A stretch of DNA of 64,000 nucleotides from contig CBDCTK010000002.1 of the NCBI GenBank assembly GCA_965222225.1, positions 832,001 through 896,000 on the forward strand, read 5' to 3'. Shown piece by piece: positions 55,964 through 64,000 of this stretch. The position numbers were made by a program, and so were the translations under genes. The stretch's first letter is position 1. Every line of letters begins with the position of its first letter. This DNA comes from Candidatus Poribacteria bacterium (GTDB lineage: Bacteria > Poribacteria > WGA-4E > JAJDTR01). The notes under the pieces were generated by a model that saw only the letters and a program-made list of their open reading frames with translations, was not told the DNA's origin and searched no databases.

Positions 55964-58341
55964 CTAACTACCTAATCGACTCCGGTACTGCAACAAGCGC
56001 AACGAGTTTAGAACAACGAGAATCGTACTACCTTCGTGAAGTATGATGGCAATGCCGATTGTTGCTATACCGAAAACTGCTGAGATGACTAGCCCACCAA
56101 TAACCGCCAGCGCGATGTATAAGTTCTGTGAAATGATTCTCCGTGTAGCGCGACCAAGCCCTATTGCAAACGGGAGTTTCGACAGATCGTCAGCCATTAG
56201 TGCAGCGTCGGCTGTTTCAAGAGCCAGATCCGTCCCGGCACCACCCATCGCAATGCCAATCGTGGCATGGGAAAGCGCCGGCGCATCATTAATGCCATCC
56301 CCAACCATTACAATTTTATCATGAGAACTCAAGAGTTTACGAATGCTGGCTACTTTGTCTTCTGGGAGCAGATTCGCTTTATAATCTGTCACGCCTGCCT
56401 TCTGGGCAATATGGGAAGCAACTCGTGGATTATCACCCGTTAGCATAACGGTATGCTTGACCCCTATCTGTTTGAGTTGTGCAACCACGGTCTTCATTTC
56501 TGGACGCATCGTGTCTGCAACTGCAATCACGCCCACGGGCTGTCGACCAACGGCAACCAGCATGATGGTTTTGCCCTGTTCTTCGAGCTTCGCGATTTGT
56601 GCCTGGAGTGACGCTTGTAATTGTACGTGTGCTTCACGATACAATTTCAGATTGCCAACCCAAACAGTCGTACCTGAAACTTCCGCTTTAATTCCTCGTC
56701 CTGTCATTGATTCTACTTCTTCTGCTTCCGGTAACCTGAGACCTTTCCTCGTGGCAATGTCCACAATGGCATGAGCAATCGGGTGGGCAGATCGACTCTC
56801 TACCGCTGCAGCCATTCCCAACCAATAATTAACATCCATTTCGCCAATTGGAATGATGTCCGTGACTACGGGTTTGCCGATGGTAATGGTGCCGGTTTTG
56901 TCGAAAGCAACAGCTTGCACGTCCCCTAAATTTTCAAGGTGAATGCCGCCCTTTATCAGAATGCCGTTCCGAGCCGCTTGGGCGATGCCAGCGAGAACCG
57001 CCGAAGGTGGGCCAAGTGCAAGCGCGCAGGGAGAAGCCGCCACCAATAATACCATGCCCCGTAGGAGTGAATCACTGAATGGAACACCTAACAACAGAAG
57101 AAGCAAAACCATGAGAATATCGCCGATGAAAATTAATGGGACAAAGACCTGCGAAAACCTCTCGGTTATCCGCTGCGTGCTCGACTTCTGGGTTTGTGCT
57201 TCCTCAACCATTGACACCACCCGAGCTAACATGGTGTCGTCTGAAAGACGTGTTACCCGAACTTCCAAACTCCCATCTCCATTGATACTTCCTGCGAATA
57301 CAGGAGAATCTGGTGCTTTATCCACCGGCACAGACTCACCAGTTATGGCGGATTCATTCACGGCGGATCTGCCGGCGATCACGTCACCATCAACAGGAAT
57401 GCGCATTCCAGGTTTCACAATTACCACAACCCCGGTTTTCAGGTCATCTACGGCTCGTTCCGATTCTCCGTCCGTATTTTTCACTATCGCCGTTTTTGGC
57501 GCCAATTCGGCCAAGTTGCCAATCGCCTTACGTGCTTTATCAAGTGCCCGTTCTTCCAATACATGCCCAAATCTGAACAGACACAGTAACAGCGCTCCCT
57601 CGCTAAACTTACCCAAAAAAGCCGCACCAATCGCTCCCACCACCATTAACAGGTCTATATCAAAACGTCCTGCGCATATTGATTTGATAGCGCGGTGAGT
57701 CGTATCAAGGCCTCCGAACACATAAGCAATCAGGTAGAGGAATAGACTTACCGTGCTTACATTGTAAAAAACGCCAAGGGGAAATGGAAACTTAAAGATG
57801 CGTTCTCCGGCCCAACCAATTAACAGGCATAATCCACATAAAAGACTGACAATTAGCTCGCGGTTCTCTGCGTACCAAGAACCTACACCCTCGGCCGGCA
57901 CTTGATAACCGAGTTGCTTAACCAGCTTTTCAATCCGTTCCCTATCGACAAAGCAGGAATCGTATTCGACCCACATGTTTTTGGCTACGAAGCGGACATT
58001 GACCCGTAGCACACCGTTCATCTGTTTTACACTTTGTTGAATAGTTGCGACACAATCAGCACAATGCATTCCCTTAAGTGGGATTAAATCATGACGGTAG
58101 CGTTCGGTCACTTTCATTCCTGCCCGCTCAGCAGCCTGTCTAGCCCGATCTCTGATAACACATCCGGCTGATAGTGTAAACACAATTGGGCGTTGCCACT
58201 TTGTTCCAGATGTGCGTCACTTATACCTGGGCGATCCTCTAGGGAAGATATTAAACGTTTAACGCATCCATCCTTTTCGTCTTTGATGCCGGACAAGAGT
58301 GATTTGATTTCAAGTTTGAGCGTTTTTTCAGTCATTGTCAA
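55964..58341 (-). CDS. Heavy-metal P1B-type ATPase (SPC/HEGST, P1B-4-like); frameshift near 58153 splits off the N-terminal domain
   Basis: GMHCADC, TGES, SPC, DKTGT, GDGINDAP, HEGST; ORF 58114..58341 joins the main ORF if one base is restored. Confidence 0.88.
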
Positions 58342-58875: not shown

Positions 58876-59646
58876 ATGTTCACCTACGACTATCATATCC
58901 ACACGAGGCTTTCCCCGTGCGCCGATAAGCATTTTAGCATTGATAAGATCATCCAGATTCAACAGACCCGCGGGTTGGAGGAAATCGGGATTACCGACCA
59001 CGATTTTAGCTACGGCTCGCGAACCAAAAACATTGATCGAGCGCGCAAAGCGATTGATGAATGCGATACGTCAATCTCAGTCCGGTTTGGCGCGGAGTCA
59101 CACATGCTCGAATACCGTGTCCCGTCAATTGATATACGCTTTGCAGCATACTTTGATTATATCTTGATGGCGCCAAATCACTATCATTTTCGCGGGGTGG
59201 CTCGCCCAACCCAACTGCTGGATCCGAAGAAGGTAGCCGTGCACGAGTTGTACATGTTTGAAGCCGCGGTTGCCTGCCCGATAACGGATGTCGTGGCGCA
59301 CCCGTTTGTTCTGTCGCCCGAGGTTTTTGGCTTTTCCAAAGAGGAATTCTCAGCCTTCGGGAGCGAAATGATGGGGCATATCGATCAGAAGCGGTTGATT
59401 AATCAACTCGACATGGCATCACAGCGCGGGATCGGCATTGAGATTAGCCCCAAATTCATCAAATACAATCAGAGACATCTCGTGGAGTTTTATCAGATGT
59501 GTCTAGATCGGGAGGTACTGTTGATGATTGGCAGCGACGCACACAACGCCGAGCAGTTGGAAGAGCTGGCGTTGCTTGGACCCGTGCTTGAGGAGTTGGG
59601 GGTTTCGGAGGAGCACCTGTGGCGACCGAAGGAGTGGCATTGGTAG
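58876..59646 (+). CDS. PHP-domain phosphoesterase
   Basis: DYHIHT, ITDH, GAE, AHP, GSDAH. Confidence 0.9.
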   Translation: MFTYDYHIHTRLSPCADKHFSIDKIIQIQQTRGLEEIGITDHDFSYGSRTKNIDRARKAIDECDTSISVRFGAESHMLEYRVPSIDIRFAAYFDYILMAPNHYHFRGVARPTQLLDPKKVAVHELYMFEAAVACPITDVVAHPFVLSPEVFGFSKEEFSAFGSEMMGHIDQKRLINQLDMASQRGIGIEISPKFIKYNQRHLVEFYQMCLDREVLLMIGSDAHNAEQLEELALLGPVLEELGVSEEHLWRPKEWHW

Positions 59647-59741: not shown

Positions 59742-61244
59742 CTATATATAGTATTTGAAATTTGGTTTACAATCGGAAACAATAGGATTCGAAATCAAAA
59801 TTTCTCCGACCGCGTCTGAAAAACCTACGGTAACAGGCTGAGAATTCCCAAGGTGGCACGCATTGTAGTTCAGTTTTGTTAAACCATAAATATCTTGGGC
59901 AACTCTTTCTATCAGAGCATCTCCGTGCTGAATATCAATGCGTAATGGCACAGGTGTTTCCCACCCGTCGTAGGTCGCAATTCGAGGTTTGAATCCACTA
60001 CCCCATAGGTATCCTGCCCGATTATTAACTCGCCAGAAGGTGCCTCTCAGAATTGGCATCTTGCCAGTGCGAAATAATCGCGGCCCGTATCGTTCCGGGC
60101 GGACCCTTACCCCAATAAGTTTAGCACTCTTGGGGCAAGCTCTTTGGTAGCCAGAAAACTCGTGATGACCAATGGTGGATCGTGAATGTAAGAAGATCTC
60201 GCGAAGTGGCTTACCACCAAGGTCCTCGTAAGTCTTTAGGACCCCACGCAAGAGGTTATATGCAGCAGTATCATTTAGATGATACTGATTAGTTTCCGAT
60301 GAATACCACGGTCCATATTGTCCAAGGAATACCACACCGTCTCCTGTATTGAGAAACATCTGGGCTGCACAACAGGCAGTTTCCTCTTCGTCTAATGTAT
60401 CATTTCGACGAAAGGCAATGCCGATGTAACAGACACCGTCGCGCGCAGTCACAAGCCTCCAAGGTTTACCGCCACATTTGTAATAAAGCGCAGTGCCAAG
60501 GTTCCACATACGGTCCGATAGCGGAGTGAGCGAGCGTCCCCCGCGCGAGTCATCGTCTTTCAAACACATTGTGGATTCCCGCACAATTTGCAAAGGGATT
60601 TCGTACTGCATGGAAAGTGCTTTCAACTGCCGCCGAAAATCGGGCGCCAATCGATACTGCTGTCGATCGAAATCATCCAAAAACTCAAGTTGCCCTGCCC
60701 TTCTCATTTGTATTGTTTGTGAAATACCAGCTTGACTAATAGGACTTGCCACGTCGGACTCTGGCCGACAATTCCGCCAAACCTCATCTGGGACTACGCA
60801 GATAGCCACGCCAATATTCTCATCAAGTTTGCTCGCCTTTTCCAACTGTTGAAGGTAAAAATTGACGGTTTTAAACGTACGCTCGTATTTATCAGGATGA
60901 CGAGAGGCCTCAATGAGTTGGGCCGCACCAATTGGATAAGACCAGACTGGCTTACTAGGCCAATGCGAGCAGAATGTAGCCTCAAACCCGGGAAATGGAG
61001 GCCAGAGCCGCAGGTTTGCTTTTCGAGCGAAGGTGGCAGGATTGTTCATAATCTCTGACCAAGCTTTGAACTTGGTGATTCCTGGGCCAGTTCCAATAAC
61101 GATGTAGGATAGTGTCCCTGGTCTTGACGGACCATCTGCGTCAAAAGGTCCGAACAGAGCTAGGCCATCACGGGGATCTATAGTCCGTTGGTGGTAGCGG
61201 AATTCCAATTCTGGTTCATCAAACACTATGATTGATTCGGTCAT
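59742..61244 (-). CDS. Short prokaryotic Argonaute (MID-PIWI, SPARTA-like clade)
   Basis: EPELEF, DPRDGLALFGP, FPGFEA, QIVREST, YYKCGGKPW, CCAAQMFL..GDG.VF.G, LTKLNYNAC, C-terminal FKYYI; start set at MTESII. Confidence 0.94.
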   Translation of the reverse strand: MTESIIVFDEPELEFRYHQRTIDPRDGLALFGPFDADGPSRPGTLSYIVIGTGPGITKFKAWSEIMNNPATFARKANLRLWPPFPGFEATFCSHWPSKPVWSYPIGAAQLIEASRHPDKYERTFKTVNFYLQQLEKASKLDENIGVAICVVPDEVWRNCRPESDVASPISQAGISQTIQMRRAGQLEFLDDFDRQQYRLAPDFRRQLKALSMQYEIPLQIVRESTMCLKDDDSRGGRSLTPLSDRMWNLGTALYYKCGGKPWRLVTARDGVCYIGIAFRRNDTLDEEETACCAAQMFLNTGDGVVFLGQYGPWYSSETNQYHLNDTAAYNLLRGVLKTYEDLGGKPLREIFLHSRSTIGHHEFSGYQRACPKSAKLIGVRVRPERYGPRLFRTGKMPILRGTFWRVNNRAGYLWGSGFKPRIATYDGWETPVPLRIDIQHGDALIERVAQDIYGLTKLNYNACHLGNSQPVTVGFSDAVGEILISNPIVSDCKPNFKYYI

Positions 61245-61254
61245 CGTCAATATC

Positions 61255-63057
61255 TTAATCAAAATGCTCATCATCGTAGTTTCTAAGCAGTTCTGAGCGT
61301 TCGTGACTAAGCGCATCAAGAGCCGCTTCGTTAATCCCAATTGGACAATACACACGCATCGGAGTTGAATTTACGATTATTTGCGCGTCTTGCAGTCCGC
61401 CAATGTTTATCTTTTGTTCATCTTTTTCGTCAGCAAGGAACTGAACTACAGCCAATACGCGGTTAAGCCAGTCGTTATTCCACCAGTTCTTGCATAGGTG
61501 TTTTCGTCTTGAATCGATTGTACGTTTATCGTTGAAGGGGTTTCCGTCTTTGTTTGAAAGACGAACTTTTATGCGAATAAGGACCGTGAAATTATTGATA
61601 AGATCTCGGCGGACAAAAAAGGTTGGCGACAGAGAATATAAGTATTCATGGCCGGACTGATGTTTTCTTTTTCCAGTAGCAGTTATATAGGTCTTTGTAC
61701 CATCAGGTCGATTAAAGTTAAGTCGATTGTTCTCCACGAGATTCTCAGGAAAGTAGGGTTGTTCCATTTTAGGACAGTATTGCAGTTTTTTCTGATAACA
61801 CTTCACTATTAGGGCTTTTCGGATAAGCTCCGATACGAGATCAAGGGACCAAATGCTATATATATTCTTAACTGCCGACCACAGTGAACCCCCATTTTCG
61901 ATTATATTGTATTTCTCGAAAACTGATACGGGCGGCCTATGAAAACTCAGAAATGTATGTCGATCGATTTTTCGATAACTCCACTCGCGCTCAAGTTCAT
62001 TAAGATTCTCTCTTGGGATTGGATTCTGCGTTTTGAAGCAATAAATGACCTCTGGTATCTGCTGAACTTGCAAACAGTTAGAAGAAATGGTTTCTTTTTG
62101 ATCGGAGAGGATGTCTTTTTGTAAGAAGGCTTCTGCGGCAACTCGCTGGCCTTCATATAATAATCGTGGACACTCAATAGATCTCAGCTTTTTCAGTAAT
62201 TGATTTAGACCTTCACCCCAATCAAGTTTAAATGGGATGAACATCAATGTTCTCGTTACCTGGTCCAACTGTGGAACGCTTACGCCATCAACATTTAAGG
62301 GGATTAGGAAATCTTCAACACGTTCATTAGCTATGTTGAGTGCGAGTGTTCTTTGACGCATTACTTCTGGATTTTTGAGCGATGCTTGTGAATACAAACC
62401 GAGAAACCGAAAGGTTCGATTCTTAATTGCCTCGTCGACAGCCTTGGGGTAAGTCTCACCCCCTAGCAACTTGAACCGCTCACACCATACAAGGTAGCCC
62501 TCAGCGGTGAGTTTGCGAGTCAGCCAATCGGCAAGTGCTGCATCTTCAGGAACACAGCTAATGAAAATGTGATCTCGCTCTGTTGAAGCGCTGATTCTGT
62601 CTTGAATCGCAAGGAATTCTGGCGGAAAGAGTCCTGGGTGATGTTTCTTGATCTGCGGATAACTCACGTCAAGTAGGATCCGCAGACGTTCAACACCAAA
62701 GAGTTCAAATTGCCAACCGAATTTTTTGTAAATGTACGCTATCGCCTCATCTCGTTGATGCGCTGTCAATTTAGCTGTTGTGACAAAAATCAGCCGGCTA
62801 CACGCGTGGCCATGTTTATACACCTTCTCTGCATCTTCAACGAGTTTCGCTCTCCAATCTTCACGGACGCTATAGGCAAAAATCGTAGTCTCATTAGACT
62901 TATTGATATGAATTGCGTCTCGTCCTTTATCACTAAAACCACCAAGGGGTTCAATGGATTTGTAACCTTCTAGTGACATCAAGTCATGGCAAAGTCGCTC
63001 AAATTCAAAATAATCTGTGATTGCTTCAAGACAATAGATTGTGGGGTCTGCTGCCAT
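61255..63057 (-). CDS. Nuclease-like (Mrr/REase fold)-TIR-APAZ protein, partner of the short pAgo
   Basis: aa 1-135 FERLC...GY...GG.SDKGRD; aa about 160-295 TIR (IFIS, WL..KL...GY.VWC, FLIPL, W..GL..LL); APAZ SN, SRRK..KNWWN..W. Confidence 0.88.
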   Translation of the reverse strand: MAADPTIYCLEAITDYFEFERLCHDLMSLEGYKSIEPLGGFSDKGRDAIHINKSNETTIFAYSVREDWRAKLVEDAEKVYKHGHACSRLIFVTTAKLTAHQRDEAIAYIYKKFGWQFELFGVERLRILLDVSYPQIKKHHPGLFPPEFLAIQDRISASTERDHIFISCVPEDAALADWLTRKLTAEGYLVWCERFKLLGGETYPKAVDEAIKNRTFRFLGLYSQASLKNPEVMRQRTLALNIANERVEDFLIPLNVDGVSVPQLDQVTRTLMFIPFKLDWGEGLNQLLKKLRSIECPRLLYEGQRVAAEAFLQKDILSDQKETISSNCLQVQQIPEVIYCFKTQNPIPRENLNELEREWSYRKIDRHTFLSFHRPPVSVFEKYNIIENGGSLWSAVKNIYSIWSLDLVSELIRKALIVKCYQKKLQYCPKMEQPYFPENLVENNRLNFNRPDGTKTYITATGKRKHQSGHEYLYSLSPTFFVRRDLINNFTVLIRIKVRLSNKDGNPFNDKRTIDSRRKHLCKNWWNNDWLNRVLAVVQFLADEKDEQKINIGGLQDAQIIVNSTPMRVYCPIGINEAALDALSHERSELLRNYDDEHFD

Positions 63058-63190: not shown

Positions 63191-64000
63191 TTAGCCCGAC
63201 ATCCCTACTAACATTACACGCTCGGCTTCCCTTTTTGCCTCTTCCACGATGGATTGACCTTCCTGTTGCAGTGCTTTTGCGTGCTTGCGGATTTCGGCGA
63301 TATGGTCGGCAATTTCGATCTGCTTCTTTGGGTCAGGCAAAATTATCCTTAATTGTTTAACTACGTTCCTTGTTATGCCGGTAACGGTGCCACCTGTTAT
63401 CTCTCTTTTGATTTGGAATTTGCCAAAACACGAGTTTAGGTAGCTCAGCAGGTAAACCGCGTTCACATTATCCCGTGGTCTCAGTAAGAAGAGATGTTCA
63501 TTTATATTCTGTCCTATATGTTCTTTACTCTGAACAATGCCGATTTTTCCTGTAGTTGCACCATCTTTGACTAAAAGCAAATCATTTAGTTGCGTTGCCG
63601 TTCTCTTGTGCAAACTATGAAACTCATGCGGGATGTATTTCGGCCTATTGACTTCTATCTCACATTGATTATTGATATGTTCTCCACCAAAACTCAATGC
63701 TCCAGATTTTATGTTTGCTACGCCACCTTTCGGACGACTTCCGCTTTCTATCATTTGCAATAAATCCCCAAGTCGCTTTACGCTACTTGTGTGTCTTAAT
63801 TGATTGTGTAGAACGTCGTAGCTATTTTGATAATAGAAAGGATCGACCCGCTTACCCGCTATCTCACCAGCATAGACTACATAGCATTTCTTCGCTTCAA
63901 TCGCTGGCATCTCAATTCCCAATTGTGCCGGAATATACTCATCAATTGAAGCCAAAAGCGAGTCTGCTTCCTGTTCTTTTTGCCGCTTCTGTGCATAGGC
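63191..64000 (-). CDS. Restriction-modification specificity (HsdS/TRD-type) protein, 5' end beyond window
   Basis: RVDP.YY, SGSRPKGG, DLLLVKDGATTGK, NEH, IILP...Q..IA coiled coil; frame open to window edge. Confidence 0.8.
   Translation of the reverse strand, partial: AYAQKRQKEQEADSLLASIDEYIPAQLGIEMPAIEAKKCYVVYAGEIAGKRVDPFYYQNSYDVLHNQLRHTSSVKRLGDLLQMIESGSRPKGGVANIKSGALSFGGEHINNQCEIEVNRPKYIPHEFHSLHKRTATQLNDLLLVKDGATTGKIGIVQSKEHIGQNINEHLFLLRPRDNVNAVYLLSYLNSCFGKFQIKREITGGTVTGITRNVVKQLRIILPDPKKQIEIADHIAEIRKHAKALQQEGQSIVEEAKREAERVMLVGMSG

Follow-up and report, generated by a model that had tools for sequence, protein, structure and literature searches.

A SPARTA-Lineage Short Argonaute Operon of Candidatus Poribacteria with Glutamine at the TIR Catalytic Position and a Conserved Mrr-Like Domain: A Probable Change of Effector

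Introduction

What is the output of a short prokaryotic Argonaute (pAgo) system of the SPARTA lineage when the TIR domain of its partner protein carries a glutamine where catalysis requires a glutamate? This question is raised by a locus in a 64,000-nucleotide stretch of DNA from a Candidatus Poribacteria bacterium (assembly GCA_965222225.1, contig CBDCTK010000002.1, positions 832,001 to 896,000), hereafter the window, in which an Mrr-TIR-APAZ gene is followed by the gene for a short pAgo. A first-pass annotation of the window had proposed that the TIR domain is kept as an oligomerization scaffold which activates an added nuclease-like domain, converting an NADase system into a nuclease one. 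Our analyses of the homologs of the Mrr-TIR-APAZ protein point to a replacement of the NADase by another effector over a whole clade, with selection shifted from the TIR domain to the Mrr-like domain.

The text of Koopal 2022 (PMC9097488) assigns the Mrr-TIR-APAZ architecture to a subclade within SPARTA clade S2A, and that of Prostova et al. (2023 preprint) also mentions it. Such proteins are filed under SPARTA in both of these sources and in the PADLOC model, and by implication are taken to deplete nicotinamide adenine dinucleotide (NAD).

Results

The Mrr-TIR-APAZ gene is a minus-strand open reading frame (ORF; 61255..63057), encoding 600 amino acids and ending in a TAA stop (61255-61257). 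Residues 160–296 (62170..62580) form its TIR domain, within which Pfam TIR_2 matches residues 164–288 (62194..62568, minus strand; E 6.8e-15), a folded domain without the catalytic Glu. By phmmer, residues 161–338 align to the MapSPARTA TIR-APAZ chain 8ifk_A (E 1.1e-22), and the query stretch ending in EVMRQRTLA pairs without a gap with the chain stretch ending in GVLKELAVA. Therefore Gln235, whose CAA codon lies at 62353..62355 on the minus strand (ttg on the plus strand), is the equivalent of SPARTA Glu77 (counted from chain residue 2). S223 and R236/A239 serve as anchors, being conserved at equal spacing in Glu-bearing and Glu-less groups alike. The alignment bears out the first-pass annotation in its placement of Gln235 at the catalytic Glu and in its reading of a WCD to WCE change; its further change of ISH to ISC holds only approximately, phmmer opening a one-residue gap there that leaves Map H9 unpaired and sets C168 on A10. 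According to the text of Koopal 2022 (PMC9097488), NADase activity of SPARTA is abolished by the E77A substitution, which was used as a catalytically dead control by Wang et al. (2023, PMC10474274). Of the features that SPARTA requires, the window locus has a TIR domain N-terminal to APAZ in the partner protein and, as judged by sequence match, a short MID-PIWI pAgo gene beside the APAZ gene, and has Gln235 in the column of the required TIR Glu (E77 in Map and Crt).

The glutamine is shared by the close relatives of the window protein. In a close-homolog set comprising the window protein and the best 120 of 722 word-index matches (approximately 600 residues long, 49–98% identity, n = 121), column 235 is Q in 118/121 and H in 3/121, and the neighboring position 236 is R in 118/121. 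The genomic loci L002, L007 and L008 likewise keep Q. Since Q is family-wide and recurs in these loci, a read error or private mutation, either of which the first-pass annotation had recognized as fatal to its proposal, is excluded.

Residues 160–600 (TIR-APAZ) were scanned with HMMER against a library of 1.84 billion proteins, which gave 1597 matches at E ≤ 0.001, and the best 150 of these were aligned with the window protein as a representative set of 151 sequences. Nine are fragments without column 235, and Glu occupies that column in 101 of the 142 having a residue there. There are at least 130 residues before the TIR domain in 37 proteins, 35 of which have a domain of the Mrr type in that region, and all 35 of these Mrr-type representatives are non-Glu at column 235 (Q14, R16, T2, L1, I1, A1). 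Where the N-terminus is short and the TIR domain complete, Glu is present in 97/100 proteins. The two remaining long forms, P0227 and P0261, have different N-terminal domains and keep Glu. The association between loss of Glu and gain of the extra domain, which had been put forward as a check on the proposed change of effector, was therefore found in the homolog alignment, as the Mrr-type proteins are without exception non-Glu and the two other fusions are not.

Six short proteins are also non-Glu, five of them on contigs of 1.5–3.7 kb; P0144 starts within the end of the Mrr domain. The sole unexplained case is P0122 (448 residues, on a 20.7-kb contig), which could be a split form. We also observed Mrr-only proteins of 131–231 residues on long contigs (P0274, P0280 and P0307), and these, together with P0122 as a Q-type TIR-APAZ protein without Mrr, may represent split versions of the system or frameshifts. 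The two Glu-bearing fusions are of interest in themselves. P0227 (647 residues) has a NADAR domain at residues 8–151 (E 2.6e-23) ahead of its TIR-APAZ part, joining, as judged from sequence, an ADP-ribose-processing domain to an apparently active SPARTA NADase. P0261 (722 residues) has an N-terminal extension of 275 residues, for which the match to a Peptidase_M78/IrrE-like domain is weak (E 0.0027, under the cut-off).

A FastTree (LG) tree was calculated for the TIR-APAZ part with 139 tips, excluding rows of fewer than 330 residues or without a residue in column 235. One clade (support 0.998) takes in all 40 non-Glu tips and no Glu tip, and the 99 tips outside it all keep Glu. Because the non-Glu tips share one clade, the tree indicates that the loss of Glu is a single evolutionary event, and repeated independent losses were rejected as an explanation. 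The R types make up one subclade inside the Q-type diversity; by parsimony, E would have changed to Q once, followed by Q to R, with each step a single-base change. The weight of the link between the Mrr domain and Glu loss would then lie in its persistence without reversal over a clade whose members have diverged to roughly 30–35% identity.

Column 235 is not the only TIR position to differ between the two groups. Among the 101 Glu-type representatives, near-invariant columns comprise S167 (89/101), Y168 (97/101), A169 (99/101), D193 (90/101), G199 and G200 (100/101 each), E201 (98/101), an aromatic residue at 203 (99/101), P204 (96/101), N231 (89/101), R236 (92/101), W266 (89/101, with F in 9) and D270 (88/101). 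The Mrr clade shows variation or replacement at A169, D193, the G199-G200-E201 loop, position 203, W266 and D270 and, in the R type, at P204. Several such columns map, through the phmmer alignment, to MapSPARTA residues described as important in the text of Wang 2023 (PMC10474274), in which T11, F45 and W46 form the nicotinamide pocket, G42 and D44 belong to the BB-loop, and I110 and R114 to the TIR assembly interface. The Arg235 subclade (e.g., P0128, P0150 and P0164) shows a pattern of its own, as position 167, Ser in Glu-type proteins, is Asp in 16/16 representatives and position 193, Asp in Glu-type proteins, is mostly Arg or Lys, a combination that we read as a coordinated charge rearrangement at the former active site.

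The distribution of constraint among the domains also differs. In the Glu clade (96 proteins, for which an Mrr value does not apply), pairwise identity averages 0.58 for TIR and 0.25 for APAZ, a TIR/APAZ ratio of 2.3, compared to 0.56 for Mrr, 0.33 for TIR and 0.34 for APAZ, a ratio of 0.96, in the Mrr clade (31 full-length proteins, four shorter ones having been dropped). Where APAZ identity is matched at 0.3–0.4, the TIR identity is 0.33 for the Mrr clade versus 0.61 for the Glu clade. Judged by these identities, selection is strongest on the TIR domain in proteins that have Glu and on the Mrr domain in those that lack it, which constitutes our best evidence for an effector swap.

The Mrr-like domain, with a PD-(D/E)xK fold, occupies residues 1–150 (62608..63057, minus strand) and, within the clade, exceeds the other domains in conservation. 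Pfam Mrr_cat matches residues 16–105 (E 7.7e-7; 29.7 bits, cut-off 21) and was found at E ≤ 0.01 in 28/34 of the other Mrr-type representatives; its ESM Atlas neighbors are Mrr_cat clusters (0.95). An AlphaFold2 (AF2) model from a 24-sequence alignment (predicted local distance difference test score, pLDDT, 84) shows the succession alpha-beta-beta-beta-alpha-beta that is characteristic of PD-(D/E)xK nucleases. Searched against the PDB with Foldseek, it matched MspJI (E 8.4e-4) and the EcAvs4 Mrr effector 8dgf, as well as EndoMS, EcoT38I, Can2, FokI, AspBHI and Cap4, and together the model and these matches identify a restriction-endonuclease-like fold.

Part of a nuclease active site can be recognized in this domain. 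An hhalign alignment to EcoKMrr (probability 65%, E 6e-5) places E20 on the FE motif and the pair D43/D47 on GDGGID. Asp47 (62917..62919, minus strand) is, by hhalign and by HMMER/MAFFT, the equivalent of the catalytic GxD Asp at the start of beta2, falling on the second GDGGID Asp of EcoKMrr and of two Mrr_cat proteins from the same genome, and it is conserved in 120/121 close homologs. The site of the canonical Q-x-K is taken up by the near-invariant, Lys-free S63-V64-R65-E66-D67 (62857..62871, minus strand), on which the EcoKMrr motif falls at V64-R65-E66 by hhalign, at Y62-S63-V64 by MAFFT and HMMER, and at S63-V64-R65 by an ungapped count from D47. An argument from hairpin spacing, in which the D-X15-Q-x-K of EcoKMrr and the two same-genome proteins would put S63 and R65 on Q and K, was dropped because hairpin length varies in the family and because hhalign, MAFFT and HMMER give other registers. 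Across the Mrr clade, F60-A61-Y62-S63-V64-R65-E66-D67-W68, K71 and D75 are almost invariant, K71, on the following helix, being the nearest invariant Lys. The invariant charged residues E20, E36, D43, D47, R65, E66, D67, K71 and D75 are typical of an active site. Migration of active-site residues is established among PD-(D/E)xK enzymes, and the domain possibly has a non-canonical active site with a migrated Lys (K71), from which nuclease activity may be predicted.

A search for stand-alone relatives of the domain gave 80 matches among 88 candidates, mostly short-contig fragments of the same family, with no sign that the domain type occurs in a different system. The two same-genome proteins that served as internal motif references are a canonical Mrr at locus L010 and, at L011 (G000:C2:3380849-3381199), a 583-residue ORF with a canonical C-terminal Mrr_cat (D-X15-Q-V-K, 69.5 bits), the N-terminal part of which is a candidate helicase-like region by eye.

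The second gene of the locus, at 59742..61244 on the minus strand, encodes a 500-residue short MID-PIWI pAgo and has its ATG at 61244, 10 nt past the TAA of the Mrr-TIR-APAZ gene; both ORFs are intact. Residues 4–500 of the pAgo match the SPARTA short pAgo 8fex_B (E 5.7e-95), and the ORF matches PADLOC pAgo_I (1.8e-170). For the Mrr-TIR-APAZ ORF the best PADLOC model is Aga_REase-TIR-PNTD1-PNTD2 (2.7e-83). A phmmer search with its protein against PDB chains gave eight distinct chain sequences (E 4.5e-25 to 3.8e-21), among them the SPARTA entries 8qlo, 8j8h, 8ifk and 8fex; each is titled either TIR-APAZ or TIR domain-containing protein. An AF2 model of the full-length protein (mean pLDDT 87) has SPARTA TIR-APAZ chains as its top Foldseek matches (E 3e-26). 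The APAZ region extends over about residues 300–590 (61288..62160, minus strand), as indicated by the Foldseek matches and by phmmer alignment to SPARTA chains up to residue 584, and on reading of the translation is followed by an acidic C-terminal tail. The text of Finocchio et al. (2023) describes such a tail as an autoinhibitor conserved in S2A and S2B APAZ proteins, and that of the window protein appears to be of this autoinhibitory type. From these matches we identify the locus as a two-gene Mrr-TIR-APAZ and short pAgo operon of the SPARTA lineage, clade S2A.

The source genome has one copy of the system. Of 41 genomes from its order, counting that of the window, 4 have a match at E ≤ 1e-10, and of 9 from its genus none has. 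Two of the same-order matches are full-length Mrr forms that keep Q (70% and 66% identity), and one is a 452-residue TIR-APAZ protein with the NPxGEW motif of Glu-type representatives. A contig scan with the single protein gave three loci, a number too small to serve as a taxonomic survey, and in a Nostoc metagenome-assembled genome (MAG) the gene order agrees with that of the window: a 602-residue Mrr-TIR-APAZ ORF that keeps Q is followed by a 506-residue ORF, the latter known by its length and order alone. Source names of homologs include Poribacteria and Anaerolineales MAGs. This patchy spread fits a mobile defense module.

The upstream neighbor of the operon is a gene for a type I restriction-modification specificity (S) subunit (63191..63955, minus strand), which has a weak match, well under cut-off, to the MADS MAD5 subunit; its frame is open to the window end (ORF 63191..64000, 5'-open), and the start may precede the TTG at 63955. 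The presence of this gene beside the operon suggests a defense island. On the downstream side, directly past the pAgo gene, a gene for a PHP-domain protein (58876..59646, plus strand) and a 739-residue ORF (55964..58183, minus strand), by eye a candidate heavy-metal P-type ATPase-like protein, are probably unrelated flanks.

Discussion

In evolutionary terms, a swap from NADase to another effector is well supported by our comparative analyses because loss of Glu is clade-wide, the conserved TIR positions are relaxed and constraint has shifted to the Mrr domain, and the killing activity has probably moved to the Mrr-like domain. To the more specific reading, in which output is of the nuclease type through the Mrr-like domain and the TIR domain is a pseudoenzyme kept as a structural or assembly module, we give a little more credence than doubt. 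By this reading, the pAgo/APAZ core would bind a guide and sense complementary invader DNA as in SPARTA, after which a conformational change or oligomerization would switch on the Mrr-like domain in place of an NADase. Activation could bring the N-terminal Mrr-like domains together or release them. These would most likely degrade DNA, for which paired PD-(D/E)xK domains would be needed, as in EcAvs4, SPARDA and SPARHA, while the TIR domain would persist between Mrr and APAZ as a non-catalytic structural or assembly module. Nuclease activity, activation by assembly and a scaffold role for the TIR domain are all three steps that we infer. The corresponding proposal of the first-pass annotation is therefore sustained in part: the correlation of Glu loss with the extra domain and the shift of constraint speak for it, but the correlation represents one event, the canonical Lys is missing and TIR contact columns have been lost.

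Several findings weigh against the reading that we favor, and they are also the points from which its rivals draw. The co-occurrence of the Mrr domain with Glu loss traces to one phylogenetic event without independent repeats. In addition, the relaxation of the TIR domain seen over the clade is not seen in the subfamily of the window protein (117 proteins of at least 590 residues), where identities are 0.69 for Mrr, 0.64 for TIR and 0.54 for APAZ, and where Q235, R236, G199-G200-E201 and P204 are at least 95% conserved. Because its TIR domain is more conserved than its APAZ region and keeps these residues, the TIR domain of this subfamily is, on this evidence, not decaying and retains some specific function. 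One such function could be continued processing of NAD with a relocated acid (E231, E193 or E201), making the system either dual-effector or still of the NADase type. The conserved acid at Glu231 (62365..62367, minus strand), one helical turn before Q235, is a candidate for this or for a helix-cap residue: 120/121 close homologs have an acid there (94 with E and 26 with D, the last protein having Q), where Glu-type relatives have N, which has the look of an exchange of acid and amide between 231 and 235, and S167 and E193 are likewise conserved in the subfamily alongside the GGE loop and P204. However, the AF2 model (TIR pLDDT mostly 82–94, with 66 for the block 191–200) has Q235 in a helix spanning 230–246, which places E231 in its first turn, a position that fits a helix-cap role and is also compatible with a catalytic one; capping could explain the acid. 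Over the whole Mrr clade, moreover, columns conserved in Glu-type TIR domains are variable, half of the clade has Arg at 235 and TIR constraint falls from 2.3 times that of APAZ to 0.96 times, and we consider a relocated acid very unlikely.

The opposite possibility is that the TIR domain is an inert ancestral linker and that the Mrr domain is released or activated without TIR-TIR contact. The DE-loop residues W266 and D270, which align to the MapSPARTA TIR-TIR contacts I110 and R114, are lost in the Mrr clade, and therefore a SPARTA-like TIR assembly is not favored; a scaffold role for the TIR domain is plausible as a general proposition. The BB-loop G200 is kept in 7/14 Q-type representatives. 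Nevertheless, the TIR domain is present in 35/35 Mrr-type representatives and folds with high pLDDT, and its conservation above APAZ in the window subfamily, with Q235-R236 at 118/121, exceeds what an inert spacer would need, which makes this possibility distinctly unlikely. The Mrr-like domain has its own rival interpretation as a DNA-binding, sensing or regulatory module that is not a nuclease, the system acting by binding or sequestration or through another partner. We did not find the catalytic Lys of (D/E/Q)-x-K on beta3 in any of the three registers, and position 65, never K among the close homologs, has R in 112 of them, N in 6, and S and Q in one each; as there is no canonical Lys, it is conservation that has to carry the case for nuclease competence. 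The domain, searched as a single sequence or as a 24-sequence profile, also had no match among sequences of solved structures, nucleases included, at E ≤ 10. These points are offset by its being the most conserved domain (0.56–0.69 identity), with many invariant charged residues like those of an active site in a superfamily where such residues migrate, and an additional partner is not indicated by the text of Koopal 2022 (PMC9097488), in which the APAZ protein is the sole protein specifically associated with short pAgos. We regard a non-nuclease Mrr domain as unlikely, if less so than either view of the TIR domain above. That the operon is a decaying, non-functional SPARTA copy, as loss of a catalytic residue might imply, is scarcely credible given two intact ORFs, the lack of stops in three other genomic loci and the depth of a clade (down to about 30–35% identity) under strong purifying selection.

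Our favored reading of a nuclease-type output can be taken further, although we hold this extension only tentatively: Mrr-TIR-APAZ operons may represent a distinct nuclease-type short pAgo system in which the dead TIR domain is an assembly or licensing module that gates a Lys-less Mrr nuclease, a counterpart of the scaffold-only TIR domains of animals. In such a system, NAD+ or a nucleotide might still be bound through the Q235-R236/GGE pocket of the Q-type subfamily, and its origin would be one E-to-Q change followed by Q-to-R drift.

In the text of the SPARTA, SPARDA and SPARHA literature, figures and supplements (such as the TIR alignment in Figure S1B of Koopal 2022) aside, we found no published statement that the catalytic Glu is lost in Mrr-TIR-APAZ proteins. 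The architecture is known, and it is the clade-wide pseudo-TIR domain and the shift of constraint that appear to be new. If the TIR domain is dead across the subclade, then the output of Mrr-TIR-APAZ systems is currently mis-predicted. Such a subclade would also constitute a natural experiment in effector replacement within a defense system and a rare bacterial example of a TIR domain kept without its enzymatic residue. Potentially, guide-programmed assembly that triggers a nuclease rather than an NADase could serve tools for the detection of nucleic acids.

Comparison with Known Systems

The window locus shares with the SPARTA systems of clade S2A (MapSPARTA, CrtSPARTA and BabSPARTA) a gene order in which the APAZ partner precedes a short pAgo, a TIR-APAZ part that matches in sequence and fold, and the acidic tail. 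It differs from them in having Gln in place of Glu77, in the clade-wide relaxation of TIR positions and in an extra Mrr-like domain of 150 residues that is now the most constrained. The pAgo of SPARTA is catalytically inactive, and the output of such a system is NAD(P)+ depletion triggered by guide RNA and target DNA. As Glu77 is lost, the TIR relaxed and the Mrr domain constrained, NADase output is unlikely here. Non-catalytic TIR domains are familiar from animals, in which those of the Toll-like receptors (TLRs) and MyD88 are scaffolds that act in assembly and not in NAD hydrolysis. The homology of the Mrr-TIR-APAZ TIR domain to these is limited to the TIR fold, and its assembly role is putative.

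Two comparisons concern the Mrr-like domain. With EcoKMrr and Mrr_cat (PF04471) it shares an above-cut-off Pfam match and the alignment of the alpha1 Glu and the GxD Asp, but has an invariant Y-S-V-R-E-D, without Lys, in place of Q-x-K. Its best structural match is the Mrr effector of EcAvs4 (8dgf; TMq 0.66, 22% identity), a likeness at the level of the fold, for which no match was found at the level of sequence, and the sensor of EcAvs4 is a STAND ATPase whereas here it is a pAgo. The text of a preprint on Avs4 (bioRxiv 10.64898/2026.08.25.746987) describes its Mrr domains as becoming active as dimers within a tetramer.

The S2B systems SPARDA, SPARHA and SPARMA, in which a DREN, HNH or Mrr-like nuclease is joined to APAZ, have a different pAgo clade and different effector families, and have no TIR domain between nuclease and APAZ. 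The window locus does not have the S2B arrangement of a DREN, HNH or Mrr-like SMEK domain directly on an S2B-type APAZ with an S2B pAgo, and the match of its pAgo and APAZ to SPARTA is far better than that to SPARHA, to SPARDA or to pAgo chains titled without a system name: E values for the pAgo are 1e-94 against SPARTA pAgos, 4e-48 against SPARHA 9om4_B and 1.5e-39 against 9jsb_A ('Ago / pAgo'). In function, however, the S2B systems provide the closest analogy, as the texts on SPARDA, SPARHA and SPARMA describe this group as collateral nucleases that are activated by guide and target and switched on by oligomerization or filament formation.

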